Below are positions 24,334-64,000 of a stretch of 64,000 nucleotides of DNA, in pieces. Source of the DNA: Escherichia coli. Its GTDB lineage: Bacteria; Pseudomonadota; Gammaproteobacteria; Enterobacterales; Enterobacteriaceae. The number at the start of each line of letters is the position of its first letter. The first letter of the stretch is position 1. The position numbers were made by a program, and so were the translations under genes. Location of the stretch: the NCBI RefSeq assembly GCF_048403405.1, contig NZ_CP183129.1. The stretch is one strand, 5' to 3'. Below the pieces are notes generated by a model. That model ran no database searches. It saw nothing but the letters and a program-made list of their open reading frames with translations, and had not been told where the DNA came from.

Positions 24334-24386
24334 CGGCGGCAGAGCAGTCACGGAGTAAAACTGATACCGCCAAACGTCACCAGAAA
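24334..24386 (-). ncRNA. dicF: DicF small regulatory RNA (antisense inhibitor of ftsZ mRNA)
   Basis: Minus strand reads ...UUUCUGGUGACGUUUGGCGGUAUCAGUUUUACUCCGUGACUGCUCUGCCGCCG followed by a U tract, matching my recollection of the 53-nt DicF sequence except at the last two bases. Confidence 0.8.
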
Positions 24387-24663: not shown

Positions 24664-24984
24664 ATGTCGCAACCACCAATAAATCCGCTTAAGAACATGA
24701 AAATTGATTACTGGTATAAAGCGCTTACAGTTGTTGGCGCTGCGTTGTTTGTCTTTAATGGAACGTCTTTTTTTGACAGATATCCCGTTGTTCCATTGGG
24801 TTTTTTGTCCTCCGGCATCTTTTTTATTGGTTTGGGGGAGTGGATTAATCACCCTCTCAAAGTGAGATTTATTGGTCCTGGAGTTTGGACTCGTGGATAT
24901 AATCGTTCTTCGTGCGCACTCGGTATCATCTTCGACATACTTGGTTGTTTCCTGATTGTTACAGGAGTCGTCAAGTTCTTCTGA
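24664..24984 (+). CDS. hypothetical small membrane protein (3 predicted TM helices)
   Basis: ATG preceded by AAGGA at -8; hydrophobic segments YKALTVVGAALFVF, GFLSSGIFFIGLGEWI, ALGIIFDILGCFLIVTGVV. Overlaps a long minus-strand ORF, so the assignment is ambiguous. Confidence 0.35.
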   Translation: MSQPPINPLKNMKIDYWYKALTVVGAALFVFNGTSFFDRYPVVPLGFLSSGIFFIGLGEWINHPLKVRFIGPGVWTRGYNRSSCALGIIFDILGCFLIVTGVVKFF

Positions 24985-29714: not shown

Positions 29715-30448
29715 AAAATGTTATCTGGAGTGGTCTGAATTCTACTAACTTAGTTTTTTCAGACCGCTTCTGACCACAATGGCCTGTGAGGTTCTGCTGC
29801 TAGTCAACATAAAATAACAAAGCCGGCAGGTGGTGGTTGTTGTAAAGTTATTCAATGACATTCATGGAGGCTTAAGCGAATTATTTGTCCCTGGTCGGTA
29901 TGGTGGCAACAGCTTGTTGCGAGAATTTGGCTAATTTGGACTGACTTCCGCTCCTTGCTCAAAGCGGACTAGAAGGTTAGCTTGTGTCGGACTTTGCGTA
30001 TTAAAAGAAGTGCTGGTGGTGACTAGTGGTTGAGCCCCATTTCCACAGAAAAAATCAGAGAAACTATACCCAATAGTTGTATTGAATCACTGACGAGACA
30101 GCCTCATATTCATCAGGACTGGTGTACGTCCAATACAGGAGGTTGTGGTGCTGGTTCTCAAATGTGCGCTGGCTATTACGGCTGTAATGGCGATTTATTG
30201 TCTTGCTATTGTTCTTATGGATCGCCTTTCTGACTGATTTCATATTGGCGAGGTAAAGGTAGTTAAGTAGAATGGCTGCGGGTGCTTGAGGCTATCTGCC
30301 TCGGGCATGAACACCAAAGGCAGATAGAGAAAAGCCCCAGTTAACATTACGCGTCCTGCAAGACGCTTAACATTAATCTGAGGCCAATTTCATGCTAGAC
30401 ACATGTAGGTTAGCCTCTTACGTGCCGGAAGGCAAGGAGAAGCAGGCT

Positions 30449-30604
30449 ATGAAGCAGCAAAAGGCGATGTTAATCGCCCTGATCGTCATCTGTTTAACCG
30501 TCATAGTGACGGCACTGGTAACGAGGAAAGACCTCTGCGAGGTACGAATCCGAACCGGCCAGACGGAGGTCGCTGTCTTCACAGCTTACGAACCTGAGGA
30601 GTAA
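30449..30604 (+). CDS. hokD: Hok/Gef-family membrane toxin (type I toxin)
   Basis: 51 aa, MKQQKAMLIALIVICLTVIVTALVTRKDLCEVRIRTGQTEVAVFTAYEPEE; embedded in a longer mok-like upstream ORF (30392..). Confidence 0.85.
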   Translation: MKQQKAMLIALIVICLTVIVTALVTRKDLCEVRIRTGQTEVAVFTAYEPEE

Positions 30605-33589: not shown

Positions 33590-33909
33590 TTCCTGTCATT
33601 TTAGGGGACAGAAAAACTCCTTAATACTGATAACCTGGTGCACCATACACACGTTCCTGGAGAAAACTACTTTTTTGATAGGGTTGAAGGTGGCTGGATG
33701 TCTAAAATAAACATTGCTTCATATGTTCAACTATGAGTTAATGACTGCGTCGGTTTGAAGAACAGACGATATACGAAGTAGTTTACTAAAGCAGTTCTCA
33801 TTTCAGGTGTTATTCACTTATTCCTTCTTTGAGTCTCTCCAATTAAGTACGAAGTCGTTTCTGTTATGCAAACCATTTATGCCGAAAGGCTCAAGTTAAG
33901 GAATGTAGA

Positions 33910-34125
33910 ATGTCAAATAAAATGACTGGTTTAGTAAAATGGTTTAACGCTGATAAAGGTTTCGGCTTTATTTCTCCTGTTGATGGTAGTAAAGATGTGT
34001 TTGTGCATTTTTCTGCGATTCAGAATGATAATTATCGAACCTTATTTGAAGGTCAAAAGGTTACCTTCTCTATAGAGAGTGGTGCTAAAGGTCCTGCAGC
34101 AGCAAATGTCATCATTACTGATTAA
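33910..34125 (+). CDS. cspB: cold-shock protein (CspA family)
   Basis: 71 aa, [38 protein letters not shown]... with RNP1/RNP2 motifs; long 5' leader typical of csp genes. Confidence 0.8.
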
Positions 34126-34406
34126 AATTCATCGCTCGTCTGTATACGATAACGAAGAAGGCTGATGCCTGAGTAGAGATACGGACAGAGTAGTGAATAT
34201 TGGATCTCTTTAATAAAAAGTAAGGAGGTCCAATACATGAAACAATGGCCAGCATATTTGGCAAAATCTTAATCAGGAAAAGTATGCTAACCATTGTGGT
34301 GAAGTGCAGGTTTGCTGCATGAATAGTTTCACAGCAGAAGCTAACTGCTGGCATCGCAAAACAAAGTGCGTAAGTGGATGACTCCCACAAAAAGCACCAC
34401 AATCTC

Positions 34407-36999: not shown

Positions 37000-37362
37000 A
37001 TTAATATTAAATCGGATTATTTTTAGCGCTGAATGTGAAATTTAAATAAAAAGGACTCTTCCATGAGTCAAAATCCTTGAAATCTTAAGGGTAAGATAAA
37101 AGGTCATTAGACAGAATGACACGTTTTATTAATAAATAAAGCTATTGTTTCATTCGTGTGTTTTTCTTTACAAAAGTAATCCTTGCTATGGTTGGTTAAT
37201 CATGCGTTAATGGTGTTCTGGTTTGTTACAAAATTATCTGAAGCAGTCATTGTTATAATTTTATTATTTGTACCTCTTGAGATTTCCTTGTTGGTTTTTC
37301 TCTCTGATATTTTTTTTCGGACCATTCTGCCCAAGGGCTAACTTCTTCAAAAGGTAATAATG

Positions 37363-37575
37363 ATGTCTAACAAAATGACTGGTTTAGTGAAATGGTTTAA
37401 CCCTGAAAAAGGTTTTGGTTTCATCACGCCGAAAGATGGTAGCAAAGATGTGTTTGTCCATTTCTCAGCTATTCAGAGCAACGATTTCAAAACGTTAACT
37501 GAGAATCAGGAAGTCGAATTTGGTATTGAGAACGGACCTAAAGGCCCCGCGGCTGTTCATGTTGTGGCACTTTGA
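37363..37575 (+). CDS. cold-shock protein (CspA family; cspI-like position after the lysis cassette)
   Basis: [45 protein letters not shown]... Confidence 0.8.
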
Positions 37576-37779
37576 GGTAGATAATATTACAAACCATATT
37601 CACTTTAGATGCCCGTGTTGCCATGGTTCTCAGTATAGAACATCATCTTTTGATGTTTCTGACAGGAATCCTTTCGGGGCAAAATGTATCTTTTGTAAAT
37701 CAATGATGATTACATTTGATAATATTTCACAATACTTAAATGTTAGCCGTCTATCGTTAGATTTAAGAAAGTGAAAATG

Positions 37780-54398: not shown

Positions 54399-57850
<3,452 letters not shown>

Positions 57851-57868
57851 ATTTTATAACCCATATAC

Positions 57869-57893
57869 GGGCGCCAGAAATGGCGCCTTTTTT
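57869..57893 (+). terminator. intrinsic terminator after J
   Basis: GGCGCC-AGAAAT-GGCGCC followed by TTTTTT. Confidence 0.75.
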
Positions 57894-57917
57894 ATTGCAG
57901 AAAAGCGAGAGGTAATT

Positions 57918-58517
57918 ATGCGTAAAGTTTGTGCAGCCATTTTGTCCGCAGCCATCTGTCTGTCCGTATCCGGTGCGCCTGCATGGGCATCTGAACATCA
58001 GTCCACGCTGAGCGCGGGGTATCTTCATGCCTCGACGAACGTTCCCGGCAGCGATGATCTTAACGGGATTAACGTGAAATACCGTTATGAGTTTACGGAC
58101 ACACTGGGGCTGGTGACGTCATTCAGCTATGCAGGAGACAAGAATCGCCAGCTTACCCGTTACAGCAATACCCGCTGGCATGAAGATTCCGTGCGTAACC
58201 GCTGGTTCAGCGTGATGGTGGGGCCGTCTGTGCGCGTGAATGAATGGTTCAGCGCGTATGCGATGGCGGGTATGGCTTACAGCCGTGTGTCGACCTTCTC
58301 CGGGGATTATCTCCGCGTAACTGACAACAAGGGGAAAACGCACGATGTGCTGACCGGAAGTGATGACGGTCGCCACAGCAACACGTCTCTGGCGTGGGGG
58401 GCTGGCGTGCAGTTTAACCCGACCGAATCCGTGGCCATTGACCTTGCTTATGAAGGTTCCGGCAGTGGTGACTGGCGCACTGACGGTTTCATCGTGGGTG
58501 TCGGTTATAAATTCTGA
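57918..58517 (+). CDS. lom: Ail/Lom-family outer-membrane protein
   Basis: Signal peptide [24 protein letters not shown]; beta-barrel repeats ending [10 protein letters not shown]. Confidence 0.88.
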
Positions 58518-58543
58518 TTAGCCAGGTAACACAGTGTTATGAC

Positions 58544-58571
58544 AGCCCGCCGGTTCAGGCGGGCTTTTTTG
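58544..58571 (+). terminator. intrinsic terminator after lom
   Basis: AGCCCGCC-GGTTC-AGGCGGGCT followed by TTTTTT. Confidence 0.75.
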
Positions 58572-58581
58572 TGGAGTGGAT

Positions 58582-60987
58582 ATGGCAGCAGTAAAAATCT
58601 CAGGTGTGCTGAAAGATGGTGCGGGAAAACCAATACAGAACTGCACTATTCAACTGAAGGCAAAGCGTAACAGCACCACGGTACTGGTGAACACGGTGGC
58701 CTCTGAAAATCCGGATGAAGCCGGGCGTTACAGCATGGATGTTGAGTATGGCCAGTACAGCGTTATCCTGCTTGTTGAAGGTTTTCCGCCTTCACATGCC
58801 GGAACCATTACCGTCTATGAAGGTTCCAGACCAGGTACGCTGAATGATTTTCTCGGTGCCATGACGGAAGATGATGTCATGCCGGAGGCATTGCGTCGTT
58901 TTGAGGAAATGGTGGAAGAAGCGGCACGCAACGCCGAAGCCGCCTCTCAGAGCGCAGCGGCGGCAAAGAAATCCGAAACTGCAGCGGCATCATCAAAGAA
59001 CGCGGCGAAAACCTCAGAAACGAATGCAGCTAATAGTGCACAGGCGGCAGCGACCTCAAAGACTGCATCGGCAAACTCCGCGACAGCAGCCAAAAAATCA
59101 GAAACCAACGCGAAAAATAGCGAGACAGCCGCAAAGACGAGCGAAACCAACGCAAAGTCCAGCCAGACGGCAGCGAAAACCAGCGAAACGAATGCCAAAG
59201 CCAGTGAAACTGCGGCAAAAAACAGCCAGGTTGCAGCAGCCCAAAGCGAGAGCGCGGCAGCCGGTTCTGCGACTTCAGCAGCTGGATCAGCAACTGCTGC
59301 GGCTAACAGCCAGAAAGCTGCGAAGACGAGTGAAACTAACGCAAAGTCCAGCCAGACGGCAGCGAAGACCAGCGAAACGAATGCCAAAGCCAGTGAAACT
59401 GCGGCGAAAAGCAGTCAGGATGCAGCGGCCCAAAGCGAGAGTGCCGCAGCCAGTTCTGCAAGCGCGGCGGCTGCTTCTGCCACTGCATCAGCTAACAGTC
59501 AAAAAGCAGCAAAAACCAGTGAAACCAACGCAAAGGCGAGCGAGACTGCGGCGGCGAACTCGGCGCAAGCATCGGCAGCAAGCCAGACAGCAGCTAAAGC
59601 AAGTGAAGACGCAGCCAGAGAGTATGCAAGCCAGGCAGCGGAGCCGTATAAACAAGTTTTGCAGCCGTTGCCCGATGTGTGGATACCGTTTAATGATTCA
59701 CTGGATATGATTACGGGCTTTTCGCCATCATATAAAAAAATTGTTATTGGCGACGATGAAATAACAATGCCTGGCGACAAGATTGTAAAGTTTAAACGCG
59801 CATCGAAAGCAACTTACATTAATAAATCTGGTGTGCTGACAGAGGCTGCCATTGACGAGCCACGATTTGAACGTGATGGCCTGCTTATTGAGGGGCAAAG
59901 AACTAACCTGCTAATCAATTCAACAAATCCGACTAAATGGAACAAGTCGTCAAATATGATCTTAAGTGCATCAGGTGTAGATGATTTCGGATTCCAGTAC
60001 GCAAAATTTACATTAAAACCAGAAATGGTAGGGCAAATTTCAGCGATTAACATAGTAACCGTTTCCGGCAGTAAAGGTTTTGATGTAACAGGCGGAGAAA
60101 AGTATGTAACCATATCATGCAGGGTGCAAAGTGGCACTCCAAATTTAAGATGCCGATTACGATTTGAAAACTATGATGGTTCTACCTACACATTCTTAGG
60201 TGACGCTTACTTAAATACGACAGATTTATCTATTGATAAGACGGGTGGTGCCGCTAATCGCATTACTGCAAGGGCTGTTAAAGATGAAGCAAGCAAATGG
60301 ATCTTTTTTGAGGCGACAATTAAGGCACTTGATACAGAAAATATGATAGGTGGAATGGTTCAGTATGCCCCGGCAAAAGGAGTGGGCACTGGCGCGGATG
60401 ATTATATTTATATTGCGACCCCTCAAGTTGAAGGTGGGGCGTGCGCTTCATCGTTTATTATAACAGGCGCATCCCCTGTAACACGCGCCAGCGATATTGT
60501 AACGGTCCCCATTTCTCTAAATTGGTGCAATCCCGCTATTAGTTCATTAGCAGAAGTTAATACCAATTGGGATGAATCGCCAAACAAAGAAGGTAGCGCA
60601 CGTATTCTTAATATTTCCACTACGGGAGATACAACTGAAATTGCAGATGAAAGTTATATGTATTTGGGGTATACATCTTTGGGAGCACGCGCAATCATTA
60701 CAAATGGTAAAGGCACTAAAATAGAATATAAAAGCGTTATAGAACGACCAGAGAGAAAAAGCATTATCGGCTTTAGATTCACAGAAAGTCGAGAATTGTG
60801 TGTTGTGGTTAACGGTAATATTGGTGCTAAGGTAGTTTCTCCTTATAAAAAACACAAATATACAGGAGGCTTCATTAATATTGGTGGTCAATCATCATCC
60901 GGCAACCGTCACCTATTTGGACACGTTCGAAATCTGCGTATTTGGCACAAGGCATTGACTGATGCTCAGATGGGGGAGTCAATCTAA
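58582..60987 (+). CDS. side tail fibre protein (lambda Stf-like N-terminus, Ala/Ser/Thr-rich repeat shaft, divergent AT-rich C-terminal receptor-binding region)
   Basis: N-terminus MAAVKISGVLKDGAGKPIQNCTIQLKAKRNSTT...; repeat shaft; C-terminal ~430 aa from an AT-rich segment ending ...GHVRNLRIWHKALTDAQMGESI (lectin/LamG-like ending). Confidence 0.85.
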   Translation: MAAVKISGVLKDGAGKPIQNCTIQLKAKRNSTTVLVNTVASENPDEAGRYSMDVEYGQYSVILLVEGFPPSHAGTITVYEGSRPGTLNDFLGAMTEDDVMPEALRRFEEMVEEAARNAEAASQSAAAAKKSETAAASSKNAAKTSETNAANSAQAAATSKTASANSATAAKKSETNAKNSETAAKTSETNAKSSQTAAKTSETNAKASETAAKNSQVAAAQSESAAAGSATSAAGSATAAANSQKAAKTSETNAKSSQTAAKTSETNAKASETAAKSSQDAAAQSESAAASSASAAAASATASANSQKAAKTSETNAKASETAAANSAQASAASQTAAKASEDAAREYASQAAEPYKQVLQPLPDVWIPFNDSLDMITGFSPSYKKIVIGDDEITMPGDKIVKFKRASKATYINKSGVLTEAAIDEPRFERDGLLIEGQRTNLLINSTNPTKWNKSSNMILSASGVDDFGFQYAKFTLKPEMVGQISAINIVTVSGSKGFDVTGGEKYVTISCRVQSGTPNLRCRLRFENYDGSTYTFLGDAYLNTTDLSIDKTGGAANRITARAVKDEASKWIFFEATIKALDTENMIGGMVQYAPAKGVGTGADDYIYIATPQVEGGACASSFIITGASPVTRASDIVTVPISLNWCNPAISSLAEVNTNWDESPNKEGSARILNISTTGDTTEIADESYMYLGYTSLGARAIITNGKGTKIEYKSVIERPERKSIIGFRFTESRELCVVVNGNIGAKVVSPYKKHKYTGGFINIGGQSSSGNRHLFGHVRNLRIWHKALTDAQMGESI
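59141..59518 (+). repeat. tandem direct repeat, 2 x 189 bp (63-aa unit), within the tail-fibre shaft region
   Basis: 59141-59329 and 59330-59518 are nearly identical (GAAAC-AACGCAAAGTCCAGCCAGACGGCAGCGAA-ACCAGCGAAACGAATGCCAAAGCCAGTGAAACTGCGGC...); a partial third copy follows. Confidence 0.8.
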
Positions 60988-61268
60988 TGAAAGATTTAAC
61001 ACTCAAATTTGCCGACAGGGCCGACTTTTCGGCCTTTATGGGAAGTATTGGCTATTATAATGACGAGTCGATGCAGGATGATATTCTGATTGATGTGATA
61101 GGTAACGTGTACAAAGAAACCGGAGAGCTGACTGAAGATGGCGAACCGGTATGTGTTAAGGAAGATGGATATTTTGTAAACGTGCGCATCATTAAGGATA
61201 CGCAAATATCGTCATTATTCGATGAATACGTGGTTGCTGTTGAGCATCAACTTCGTGGCTGGATGTGA
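60987..61268 (+). CDS. hypothetical protein (tail-fibre assembly chaperone position)
   Basis: 93-aa ORF overlapping the stf stop by 1 nt (TAATG); AT-rich. Confidence 0.45.
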   Translation: MKDLTLKFADRADFSAFMGSIGYYNDESMQDDILIDVIGNVYKETGELTEDGEPVCVKEDGYFVNVRIIKDTQISSLFDEYVVAVEHQLRGWM

Positions 61269-61277
61269 GGAAGAAAA

Positions 61278-62318
61278 ATGGCTACATCGACAGTAATTCC
61301 TGATGACATCAAAACGCTAAAATCCGACGTTAGCAAATTAAAAAACGATCAAGGAAGCTACGCAACAAAATTATATGTAGACAGCAAAGATGAAATCGTT
61401 GGTGACTGGTCTGCTTCATGGTATCAGCAGGTATTGCCAACTAGCGGAGCTATATTTGGGAGAAAACTCCGCTCAACTCACAGGACGGCAGGTGTTGAGG
61501 ATGCGTATTGCGAACTATACCTCAAAAAATGGATAGACAGTCCAGGTAACGCAATGGCGCGCCTTAACCTGAACGATAACGGGACAAACATTTGCTGGGA
61601 CTTTACCAACCTTTATGGCGGTACGATGATTTTTCCCGGTGACAGCGGATACCTCAAAATGGGTAACTGCCTTATGTCATACAGCAAGCGTGGAAGTAAC
61701 GCGCTTATTAAATTTGATTACACCGACACATTACAGATCAAATATGCCAATCATGGGTCAACCATGACATTAAACACACAGGGAACCGCTTATGCTGGTG
61801 TTACTGCTCAATTGTGGGGCAACTCCAGCCGTCCTGTTGTTTATGAAGTCGGTGTTGATGGTGGCGCTTATATGTTCTATGCGCAAAAAAATACCGATAA
61901 CACCTATATGTTAAGCGTTAATGGTGCATGTCATGCCACCGCATTTAACCAGCATTCCGACCGGGATCTGAAAGACAACATTCAGGTGATCGATAATGCA
62001 ACCGACCGCATCCGTAAAATGAACGGCTATACATACACGCTTAAAGAAAACGGTATGCCCTATGCTGGTGTCATTGCACAGGAAGCTCTGGAAGCAATCC
62101 CAGAAGTTGTAGGTTCCGCAATGAAATATCAGGACGGCGCAAGCGGATCGGAAGGTGAAGAAGGTGAACGTTATTACACAGTAGATTATTCTGGTGTTAC
62201 TGGCTTGCTTGTTCAGGTAGCCAGAGAGTCAGACGACAGAATAACAGCACTGGAAGAAGAAAACGCAGAATTAAGACAAAGATTATCTGCAATTGAGGCG
62301 GCGCTTGCGTCTAAATAA
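61278..62318 (+). CDS. second tail fibre / tail spike protein with C-terminal intramolecular chaperone (peptidase S74-like) domain
   Basis: 346 aa; C-terminus ...SDRDLKDNIQVIDNATDRIRKMNGYTYTLKEN...GVIAQEALEAIPEVV... plus a terminal coiled coil, typical of the auto-cleaving chaperone domain of phage fibres. Confidence 0.7.
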   Translation: MATSTVIPDDIKTLKSDVSKLKNDQGSYATKLYVDSKDEIVGDWSASWYQQVLPTSGAIFGRKLRSTHRTAGVEDAYCELYLKKWIDSPGNAMARLNLNDNGTNICWDFTNLYGGTMIFPGDSGYLKMGNCLMSYSKRGSNALIKFDYTDTLQIKYANHGSTMTLNTQGTAYAGVTAQLWGNSSRPVVYEVGVDGGAYMFYAQKNTDNTYMLSVNGACHATAFNQHSDRDLKDNIQVIDNATDRIRKMNGYTYTLKENGMPYAGVIAQEALEAIPEVVGSAMKYQDGASGSEGEEGERYYTVDYSGVTGLLVQVARESDDRITALEEENAELRQRLSAIEAALASK

Positions 62319-62324
62319 TATCAA

Positions 62325-62345
62325 GGGGCCGAGCGCCCCGTTTTA
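62325..62345 (+). terminator. intrinsic terminator after the second fibre gene
   Basis: GGGGCCGAGCGCCCCG followed by TTTTATT. Confidence 0.6.
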
Positions 62346-62354
62346 TTGGGTAGG

Positions 62355-62654
62355 ATGAAAATGGATATAACACCTTTCCTTCATGCGCTTTGTGCTGTGG
62401 CTGCGCAGCTACTGGTTGGTCTTTTTACCGGGAACTGGGCTTACGGGGCGATAGCCGGTTGTACGTTCTTCATTGCGCGTGAACACACCCAGGCGGAATA
62501 TCGCTGGATTGAAATGTTTGGGCATGGCAAGAGGATTAACATGCCGTGGTGGGGCGGTTTTGATCCGCGCGTGTGGGATGTGGCAAGCCTGATGGATTTT
62601 GCTGTGCCGGTGGTGGCGTGTCTGCTGGTCTGGCTGTTGGTTAATCGTGGGTGA
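62355..62654 (+). CDS. hypothetical small membrane protein
   Basis: About 100 aa with two hydrophobic helices (LHALCAVAAQLLVGLF, FAVPVVACLLVWLLV). Confidence 0.5.
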   Translation: MKMDITPFLHALCAVAAQLLVGLFTGNWAYGAIAGCTFFIAREHTQAEYRWIEMFGHGKRINMPWWGGFDPRVWDVASLMDFAVPVVACLLVWLLVNRG

Positions 62655-62881
62655 AAAAAGGTGAGCTGTATATGCAACGGAGGAAGAAACCCCGTTGCTG
62701 GAAGCCTGGAAAAAGTATCGGGTGTTGCTGAACCGTGTTGATACGTCAACTGCACAGGATATTGAATGGCCAGCACTGCCGTAGGGTAAAACATATAAAT
62801 TCTATAATTAGATGTATCTTTCCATTTACGGCAAGGAAGGGGGCTTGGAAGACGTAAAGCATCTCACACCGAGATTATTTT

Positions 62882-63472
62882 TTATATGTCAGGTGTCTGA
62901 AGTTTTGCTTTGGCTCTTAAAATGGTTTGCCGCGAGGTTTTGAATTCCCGGGCAATGGCACTTATACTTACACCTGACTTAATTCGTTCGAATACCACCT
63001 GTTTCTGTTCTTCATTTAACACAGGTGGTCGACCAAAACGTTTCCCTGCGCCCCGGGCTCTTACTATCCCGGAATGAGTGCGTTCAAGTAAAAGGTCTCG
63101 TTCAAATTCAGCGACTGCTGAAATTACTTGCATCATCATTTTTCCTGTTGGACTGGTCAGGTCAATGCCCCCCAATGCTAAGCAATGCACTCTGATACCT
63201 GTTTCGGTCAGTTGTTCCACTGTTTTCCTGATATCCATTGCATTACAACCAAGGCGATCCAGTTTTGTCACAATCAATTGATCACCACATTTCAGGCGAG
63301 CAAGCAACCGGTTAAAACCAGGACGCTCACTGGTTGCTGCTGAGCCGCTAATGTGTTCTTCGATTATTTGCTGAGGTTTGATTTTAAAACCTGCACTTTC
63401 GATTTCCCGGCGTTGATTTTCGGTGGTCTGATCCAGCGTTGATATCCGACAGTAAGCAAAAATTCGAGACAT
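62882..63472 (-). CDS. serine recombinase (DNA invertase/resolvase family)
   Basis: 196 aa; N-terminal catalytic motif YCRISTLDQ; C-terminal HTH; adjacent to the tail-fibre genes. Confidence 0.85.
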
Positions 63473-64000
63473 AGTGAGACTCTATACGAAATTGGTGTTC
63501 ATATCATAATGCATCTCAGAAAATAATTTTGATTATTTTTGTGCATGTTTGTATGTACACGTTCGAAAATAAACGAATGCGTATGCAACCCCGTAATTTT
63601 GGTGAGACCCAAAATCGATTTTGTGAAAAATGGCTTTAACTCGGTTTGTTTTTCGAGTTCCGGGCGGACTCAAGGAAGAAGAATAGTGTTGCGTGTTATT
63701 TTAACCAGATTTCAAGTTGTTTGGTCGTGGAAAAGTGGAGCAAAATGTTGTTAAAGTGGAAAAATGATAAAAAAGTAAGTTTATTATATTACATTTTACC
63801 ATTTAAATTTTGGTTGTCTTTAAGAACTGATATCGCTGTTTGTAATAATTCTTTGTTATCCAGCCATGACTTTTTCTTTATGTTTCCTTCAATGTAATCA
63901 AGCAATGTTCTGGTATTGATAGGTCTTCCCTGTTTTGCCACTTCCACGACAGCATCTCCCAGGATAATTCTGACTTCAGGAAGCTGCGCAGGGAACCACT

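Follow-up and report, generated by a model that had tools for sequence, protein, structure and literature searches.

Near the end of a 64,000-nt stretch of Escherichia coli DNA (contig NZ_CP183129.1, assembly GCF_048403405.1; hereafter the window), a gene for a small serine recombinase follows a set of tail-fibre genes. This position resembles that of gin in phage Mu, cin in P1 and pinE in the e14 element, and it raises the question of whether the enzyme inverts an adjacent fibre segment and so switches host range. A preliminary description of the window had proposed such a switch, with a palindrome upstream of the gene as the crossover site, while allowing that the enzyme might be a resolvase with another function. 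We identify the gene as pinR/pinQ of lambdoid prophages. Its product, here called PinR, is probably an orphan protein descended from transposon resolvases that has no substrate in cis, is at best a weak recombinase and perhaps retains DNA binding.

Descent of PinR, its catalytic residues and its upstream region

The recombinase is encoded by a 196-aa open reading frame (ORF) on the minus strand (Table 1) with Pfam matches to Resolvase (4.5e-36) and HTH_7 (8.6e-11), and tail-fibre PHROGs precede it. The preliminary description was thus right about a small serine recombinase after the fibre genes; the start coordinate that it gave, 62346, belongs to a separate 97/102-aa ORF of phrog_1443. Compared with the proteins of E. 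coli K-12, the recombinase is identical to PinR of the Rac prophage at 196/196 positions and to PinQ of Qin at 194/196. In a megablast search of 5,426 complete E. coli genomes, the set used for the junction and module counts below, the region was found at 99.7% identity in strain TUM1226, where the gene is annotated pinQ; the annotation of NZ_CP135719 uses the same label for the same gene. The window gene is therefore the known E. coli prophage gene pinR/pinQ; it occupies the 'b region' of a lambdoid prophage that is integrated at the Qin site.

To place PinR among the serine recombinases, we compared it with DNA invertases and resolvases. PinE of e14 scored 312 bits against Gin, whereas PinR reached 105 bits with Gin and 82 bits with gamma-delta resolvase. 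PinR and PinE are 39% identical, and their helix-turn-helix (HTH) regions differ throughout. By these scores, PinR lies outside the Gin/Cin/Hin/Pin subfamily. Its nearest diverged relatives, with 72–84% amino acid identity, are TnpR resolvases, which are overwhelmingly plasmid-borne: the relatives' records comprise 1,858 from plasmids versus 13 from phages, and 11 of these 13 are E. coli lambdoids at least 95% identical.

The genes of these relatives have a characteristic setting. In seven of eight places, the gene for P0014 (84% amino acid identity) lies 160 bp from, and divergent to, the gene for an intact 994-aa transposase with DUF4158 and DDE_Tnp_Tn3 domains. P0100 (78%) has the same arrangement in six of eight places and a truncated N-terminal transposase remnant in the other two, and locus L006 shows the same divergent transposase–resolvase layout. 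This is the classic tnpA–res–tnpR arrangement, in which res is the resolution site. At the DNA level, 710 bp of the window (63552-62843) are 82% identical to the transposon, a stretch that includes pinR with 80 bp of upstream and 39 bp of downstream sequence. A tblastn search of the window with TnpA returned no transposase remnant at E below 1. Homology to tnpR without a transposase therefore makes PinR an orphan tnpR. Overall, the comparisons show that PinR belongs by sequence to the TnpR clade and is, by descent, an orphan resolvase of the Tn3-transposon/plasmid type. The alternative held in reserve by the preliminary description, a resolvase for another function, agrees with this ancestry.

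The relatives also provide a reference for the DNA upstream of pinR. When the copies from transposons, plasmids and prophages are aligned, ∼125 bp upstream of pinR prove homologous to the three-subsite res of the relatives. There, the three subsites are built from the half-site TGTCCGAAA / TTTCGGACA and consist of a 26-bp dyad distal to tnpR (12 + 2 + 12, with a GT/AC centre), a 32-bp dyad and a proximal site that overlaps the TATAAT box. In the window, the spacing of the three subsites has been kept although their sequence has diverged. The site I dyad matches at 5/12 positions, versus 9–11/12 in the transposon, plasmid and Erwinia-phage relatives, and the outer dyad of site II at 5/10, versus 8–9/10. 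Prophage copies overall have 5–6/12 (site I) and 5–7/10 (site II). Summed over sites I and II, there are 12 mismatches to the half-site in the window versus 1–2 in the transposons. The positions flanking the crossover centre, CCG GT CGG in the relatives, read TCG TT TAT in the prophage.

The homologue from Erwinia phage LS-2018a (L051 5870-6603, CP013974; 61% amino acid identity) has the same upstream layout, with the half-sites jointly changed to TGTACTAAA. These co-varied half-sites are good comparative evidence for the binding sites of the protein. The Erwinia homologue has also kept the catalytic arginine and a well-preserved three-subsite res, and it looks like a functional phage-borne member of the family. 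Prompted by this co-variation, we considered whether the half-sites upstream of pinR represent a changed specificity. We rejected this as the principal reading: the half-sites are mutually inconsistent and have lost their dyad symmetry, with no change in the recognition helix. Indeed, the HTH recognition helix of PinR is almost unchanged from that of the transposon TnpRs while the half-sites have diverged; the protein has therefore not followed the DNA. As judged from the alignments, pinR is preceded by a res that has lost its dyad symmetry and has probably decayed.

We then examined the catalytic residues of PinR. The nucleophile, Ser11 (gamma-delta S10), has been kept. Residues Y7, R9, S11 and R73, corresponding to Y6, R8, S10 and R68 of Tn3 resolvase, are all present, E38 stands in place of D36 as a conservative change, and Q14 and Q19 of Tn3/gamma-delta resolvase are also conserved. 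Codon 76 encodes a cysteine at the position of the catalytic arginine (Tn3/gamma-delta R71). The motif LDRLGR, common to Gin, PinE, gamma-delta/Tn3 resolvase and the transposon relatives, reads LDRLGC in PinR. Across the 120 best homologue cluster representatives, position 76 is arginine in 115 and cysteine in 5, all of them PinR/PinQ lineages. The TGT codon occurs in 24/24 full-length prophage and phage copies, including a second prophage lineage that is 85% identical at the protein level. In Tn3 resolvase, catalysis depends most critically on six residues, of which R71 is one: R71A and R71K abolish recombination in vivo, and R71 substitutions reduce cleavage about 1000-fold, with site I binding not strongly inhibited (PMC2794168). 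In the literature searched, we found nothing on a link between PinR and transposon resolvases, on a decayed res or on the Cys76 substitution; the only two papers that mention PinR, Tn3 and resolvase together are genomic surveys of clinical isolates.

The ratio of non-synonymous to synonymous substitution rates (dN/dS) is 0.13–0.15 for prophage versus plasmid copies and 0.38–0.41 between the two prophage lineages. This pattern indicates that constraint on the gene sequence is relaxed, not absent. In E. coli AW1.7 (NZ_CP073624.1 2451375-2453478), pinR/pinQ is interrupted by IS1, and the gene is therefore dispensable at least in that strain.

The comparison with two reference systems can be summarized as follows. 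The Tn3-family TnpR loci of E. coli and Klebsiella plasmids (L006, L034, L043) resemble the window in amino acid sequence (72–84% identity), in a near-identical HTH recognition helix and in a promoter/res region that is homologous and spaces its three subsites alike (26 bp, 32 bp, proximal site). The window differs from them in that it lacks a transposase, has degenerate half-sites, carries the arginine-to-cysteine change and belongs to a phage b region instead of a transposon. With the Tn3 and gamma-delta resolvases, whose structures with res are 1GDT and 1ZR4, PinR shares the domain order, and its relatives share a res between divergent tnpA and tnpR genes with the crossover site distal to tnpR. 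PinR differs from these enzymes in scoring only about 82 bits and in having no equivalent of R71. In the PinR family, site I spans 26 bp around a GT/AC centre, as compared with 28 bp in Tn3. In its mode of working as in its descent, the gene is closest to a Tn3-family TnpR/res module, but the window does not carry a functional one: it lacks a transposase, its res is apparently degraded and its catalytic set is incomplete.

A PinR that still works as a resolvase in cis, on a diverged but functional res, could resolve multimers of the phage or prophage, or recombine with the res-like sites of other prophages. The preserved three-subsite layout and spacing, the TTTCG kept in several half-sites and the intact, widespread ORF would fit such an enzyme. 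It is nevertheless highly improbable given the loss of dyad symmetry at sites I and II, the changed inner positions flanking the crossover and the missing catalytic arginine. Furthermore, genomes with two to seven copies have no reported rearrangements at the site, and lambdoid phages are not known to require a resolvase.

Search for a local inversion switch

The case for a Gin/Cin/Pin-type switch begins with the position of the gene and with the PHROGs label of the PinR family, 'DNA invertase'. In NCBIfam, the recombinase had sub-threshold matches only (Mpi invertase, 85 bits where the cut-off is 272); it had no match in PADLOC, and Rfam found nothing in the range 62346-63660. On the proposed model, the palindrome at 63638-63659 and a partner beyond the window would bound an adjacent fibre segment that PinR inverts.

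The palindrome, AACTCGGTTTGTTTTTCGAGTT, lies exactly where the preliminary description had placed it, 165 nt upstream of the start codon. As had also been stated, there is no second copy in the window with up to three mismatches; nor is there one in L001, 25.7 kb of the 99.7%-identical genome reaching 12 kb past the window end. Its proposed role as a crossover site did not survive. Perfect 6-bp-arm inverted repeats with a loop of at most 12 nt number 321 in the window, about 5 per kb, and the 316-bp intergenic region upstream of pinR has eight such seed positions, some nested in one palindrome. The same region contains stronger repeats, namely a perfect 14-bp palindrome (63610-63623) and a repeat with 8-bp arms (63520-63539). 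The flagged palindrome is unchanged in both K-12 prophages, Rac and Qin. The homologous stretch of plasmid locus L005 has arms that do not complement each other. Moreover, the palindrome lies upstream of, and outside, the conserved res-like homology. A role as a terminator was also rejected, as the terminator scan was negative and there is no T-run. We judge the palindrome to be a chance feature that probably has no part in PinR function.

The stronger 14-bp palindrome is CAAAATCGATTTTG in the window and occurs only in prophage copies. Prophages of the L009 class (L009, L019, L023) carry the variant AAAAATCGATTTTT, in which both arms have changed and the palindrome has been kept. It lies just upstream of the res remnant, beside an inverted repeat with 7-bp arms (63596-63615), and it may be a protein-binding site.

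We also searched for the recombination sites of known inversion systems. The gix/hix consensus (TTATCNNAAACCNNGGTTTNNGATAA) had no match in the window with up to three mismatches. A search of the window for pix (TTGGTTTGGGAGAAGG) gave nothing above chance, with one chance-level match to the pix core far off at 24827. Inverted-repeat scans of window positions 56000-64000 and of L001 8000-16500 returned chance-level pairs only. One pair has an arm upstream of pinR (61104-61120 / 63547-63563; 17 nt, 88%). To evaluate this pair as inversion sites, we built the predicted inverted junction, which was carried by 0/5,426 genomes. A scan of the whole window for transposon-type res dyads (TGTCCGAAA-N2-18-TTTCGGACA) found 6, as compared with a mean of 3.5 and a maximum of 6 in shuffled sequences, and none close to the fibre genes was convincing.

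The organization of the locus also speaks against a switch. The 12 kb beyond position 64000 in the near-identical genome contain no partner site, and an invertible segment extending past that position would have room for only two small genes, ydfK and ynfT, before the prophage ends. The order and orientation of ydfK, the upstream region, pinR and the tfa 3′ end are the same in 29/29 phage and prophage loci, and 2,677 complete E. coli genomes carry the 1.3-kb module as one colinear block. The fibre genes are faced by the 3′ end of pinR, not its 5′ end. The window contains no second, oppositely oriented set of fibre C-terminus and tfa: there is one fibre set and a tfa remnant, all on the plus strand. 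Consistent with these findings, a BLAST survey by Kirigo et al. (NAR 2025, PMC12529663) found no inversions in Qin or Rac.

The lack of sites and of a partner copy, the invariant orientation and the absence of an inverted junction show that the locus has no invertible tail-fibre segment with PinR as its recombinase. Together with the distance of PinR from Gin, these results leave next to no likelihood for the proposed host-range switch. PinR does resemble the Din family, that is, Gin (Mu), Cin (P1), Hin (Salmonella) and PinE (e14), in its small serine recombinase fold with a C-terminal HTH, in the proximity of its gene to tail-fibre genes and in the AAACC-containing half-sites of its family's cognate site I. 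In contrast to Din systems, the window has no flanking 26-bp inverted sites, no duplicate fibre/tfa set and no orientation polymorphism, and the gene turns its 3′ end to the fibres. That the enzyme is interchangeable in function with the Din invertases is claimed only by Kirigo et al. (PMC12529663). As a Din-type inversion system, the PinR locus fails on every testable point.

Possible action in trans and residual role of PinR

A role in trans has been reported for PinQ/PinR in the only experimental study of them, in which inversion of the e14 P segment at pix yields the fibre StfE2 and blocks adsorption of phage T2 (Kirigo et al., NAR 2025, PMC12529663). Taken at full strength, this would make PinR/PinQ a fully competent trans-acting DNA invertase at the e14 pix sites, producing StfE2 as a chimeric fibre. 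In the same study, T2 survivors carried the inverted P segment, the effect was gone when stfP, stfE or e14 was deleted, and over-production of PinQ gave 88% inversion. The half-sites of the family, TGTCCGAAACC, and of pix, TCTCGAAAACC, share an outer T-TC and an inner AAACC, and PinR scores a little higher with Gin (105 bits) than with gamma-delta resolvase (82 bits). Nevertheless, we consider full competence doubtful. The catalytic arginine is replaced by cysteine, and PinR is only 39% identical to PinE, with an unlike HTH and 105 bits against Gin where PinE has 312. In a pinE single mutant, the P segment was locked despite the presence of pinQ and pinR (PMC12529663), and a term search of the main text of that paper found no catalytic-serine mutant, purified-protein assay or test of PinQ in a pinE-null background. 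As compared with pix, the cognate site I of the family has one extra base pair per side between AAACC and the centre. Finally, the window itself has no pix site.

A related possibility is that PinR has been domesticated as a non-catalytic DNA-binding protein, acting either as an autorepressor or local regulator or as an accessory subunit that biases PinE inversion. Such a protein would be in keeping with the conserved HTH of PinR and with the Tn3 R71 substitutions, which spare site I binding (PMC2794168), as well as with an intact ORF and a dN/dS below 1. It would also accommodate the observations that loss of pinE locks the P segment even though the orientation of the segment responds to PinQ dosage (PMC12529663). 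On the other hand, the operator-like sites of the protein's own upstream region are degenerate, and dN/dS is relaxed. We propose this role only tentatively; it would overlap our preferred reading of PinR as a resolvase-descended orphan rather than exclude it.

According to that preferred reading, PinR would have no cis substrate in this prophage and would be a weak recombinase at best. Because its recognition helix is essentially that of the transposon relatives, any remaining role would probably depend on DNA binding. PinR might repress at its own promoter region, or it might target AAACC-type sites elsewhere in trans, the kind of action that has been reported in K-12 for the P segment of e14.

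Several observations weigh against so weak an enzyme. The ORF is free of stop codons in 24/24 full-length copies and its dN/dS is below 1, so some function of PinR is probably under selection. The defect attributed to Cys76 is extrapolated from Tn3 resolvase mutants with alanine or lysine at the equivalent position. Over-produced PinQ raises P-segment inversion from about 30% to 88%, and deletion of pinQ lowers it (PMC12529663); this is the chief evidence against a weak enzyme, and PinQ may therefore keep useful activity despite Cys76. By eye, the pix half-site matches the family half-site at 8/11 positions, and cross-recognition of pix by the PinR family is accordingly not implausible on the basis of these half-sites. 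Lastly, the prophage res could be diverged rather than dead.

Prophage context and implications

The right arm of a lambdoid prophage closes the window, and the prophage ends <1 kb beyond it. In TUM1226, the locus continues past pinQ with ydfK, ynfT and then a truncated host ydfJ, which marks the Qin integration site. The order at the right end of the prophage is stf, tail-fibre genes, tfa 3′ remnant, pinR, ydfK, ynfT and attR. The tfa–pinR–ydfK module is common to K-12 Qin, K-12 Rac and phage mEp460, and ydfK is the co-oriented upstream neighbour of pinR in all three, as in the window. The functional phages mEp460, 2H10 and Tritos carry the same gene between tfa and ydfK/attP/int. The K-12 loci of PinR (Rac) and PinQ (Qin) resemble that of the window in the protein (100%/99%), in the neighbours (tfa 3′ end, ydfK/ynaE, ynfT/ynaM) and their orientation, and in an upstream region that is identical, including the palindrome; the integration site is that of Qin. 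Whereas Rac and Qin of K-12 are remnants, the window prophage is full length, about 45 kb. Its stf/tfa cassette has been swapped for a different fibre set, and of tfa only the final 111 bp remain. The features are listed in Table 1.

Table 1. Coordinates of pinR, its upstream elements and neighbouring features in the window
Feature	Start	End	Strand	Basis or remark
Tail-fibre cassette before the module: 803-aa Stf, 93-aa ORF, 346-aa tail-fibre-domain protein	58576	62318	+	ORFs, PHROGs
97-aa hypothetical protein, phrog_1443, function unknown	62361	62654	+	Within swapped-in fibre cassette, outside recombinase module
tfa 3′ remnant, left edge of conserved tfa3′-pinR-ydfK module	62674	62784	+	Partial tfa pseudogene in L001 annotation
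pinR/pinQ-type small serine recombinase gene, 196 aa	62882	63472	-	ORF, Pfam, K-12 identity
Codon 76, TGT (Cys), at catalytic-Arg position (Tn3/gamma-delta R71; motif LDRLGR)	63245	63247	-	Alignments
Codon 11, TCA (Ser), nucleophile serine, kept	63440	63442	-	Alignment to gamma-delta S10
res subsite III region	63483	63504	-	Alignment; distal end overlapped by pinR -10-like TATGAT, 63503-63508
Decayed res subsite II, 32 bp	63514	63545	-	Alignment to relatives
Decayed res subsite I, 26 bp, CATACGCATTCG TT TATTTTCGAACG	63560	63585	-	Column-wise alignment to tnpA-tnpR intergenic region
Perfect 14-bp palindrome CAAAATCGATTTTG	63610	63623	.	Only in prophage copies; no function assigned
Flagged palindrome AACTCGGTTTGTTTTTCGAGTT	63638	63659	.	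Perfect 6-bp arms, 10-nt spacer; judged chance
ydfK (cold-shock protein YdfK), cut by window end	63789	64000	-	L001 13490-13723 annotation

The tail-fibre PHROGs correspond to the 803-aa side tail fibre (58576-60987) and the 346-aa protein (61278-62318). Between 58950 and 59700, the side tail fibre contains long, near-periodic repeats rich in Ala, Ser, Thr and Lys (KTSETNAKSSQTAAK...), which produce spurious long ORFs in other frames. The 97-aa phrog_1443 protein had no match in PADLOC or NCBIfam. The tfa remnant is conserved and convergent with pinR in 29/29 loci. What survives is the final 111 bp of tfa, flanked by the new fibre cassette and pinR, and it forms a constant left boundary of the module in the 29 loci. 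This constant boundary suggests that the conserved tfa 3′ block anchors the homologous recombination by which fibre cassettes are exchanged. In the prophage lineage with 85% identity (IMG/VR L024 82-156, L027 2-36), a second tfa 3′ fragment lies ∼1.4 kb beyond ydfK, in direct orientation relative to the fragment beside pinR; the ydfK–pinR block of that lineage is therefore bracketed by a short direct repeat.

Farther from pinR, the tail-tip gene J (54411-57850) is frameshifted. Near 57470, its long ORF (54411..57632) departs from the J frame, and the conserved C-terminus of J (...ATAGISIS) runs in another frame to 57850; the near-identical TUM1226 prophage has an intact 1159-aa gpJ. The frameshift reflects either a defective prophage or a sequencing error. 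The lom gene is at 57918-58517. Rfam matches at gathering score at 24334-24385, 30280-30454, 33749-34141 and 37205-37621 comprise the DicF small RNA, the sok antitoxin RNA and two cspA-type thermoregulator leaders, which are typical cargo of Qin-type prophages (cold-shock paralogues and a hok/sok-like module).

In the window, then, pinR is an already-named gene of well-studied E. coli prophages that happens to lie near a chance palindrome, and it is not a candidate host-range switch. Its kinship with resolvases, its ruined res and Cys76 bear on the proposal of 2025 that PinQ acts in phage defence as an invertase, and on the catalytic competence of that protein. It is conceivable, though we would not favour it, that PinR/PinQ, which about half of complete E. 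coli genomes carry, is a natural serine recombinase deficient in the catalytic arginine, descended from a Tn3-type resolvase with a now decayed res, that has been kept as a non-catalytic DNA-binding factor. An accessory or regulatory role of this kind would reconcile the Cys76 evidence with the inversion data (PMC12529663). If PinQ is indeed non-catalytic, for example assisting PinE at pix, the phage-defence mechanism in which PinQ inverts e14 would need to be re-interpreted.

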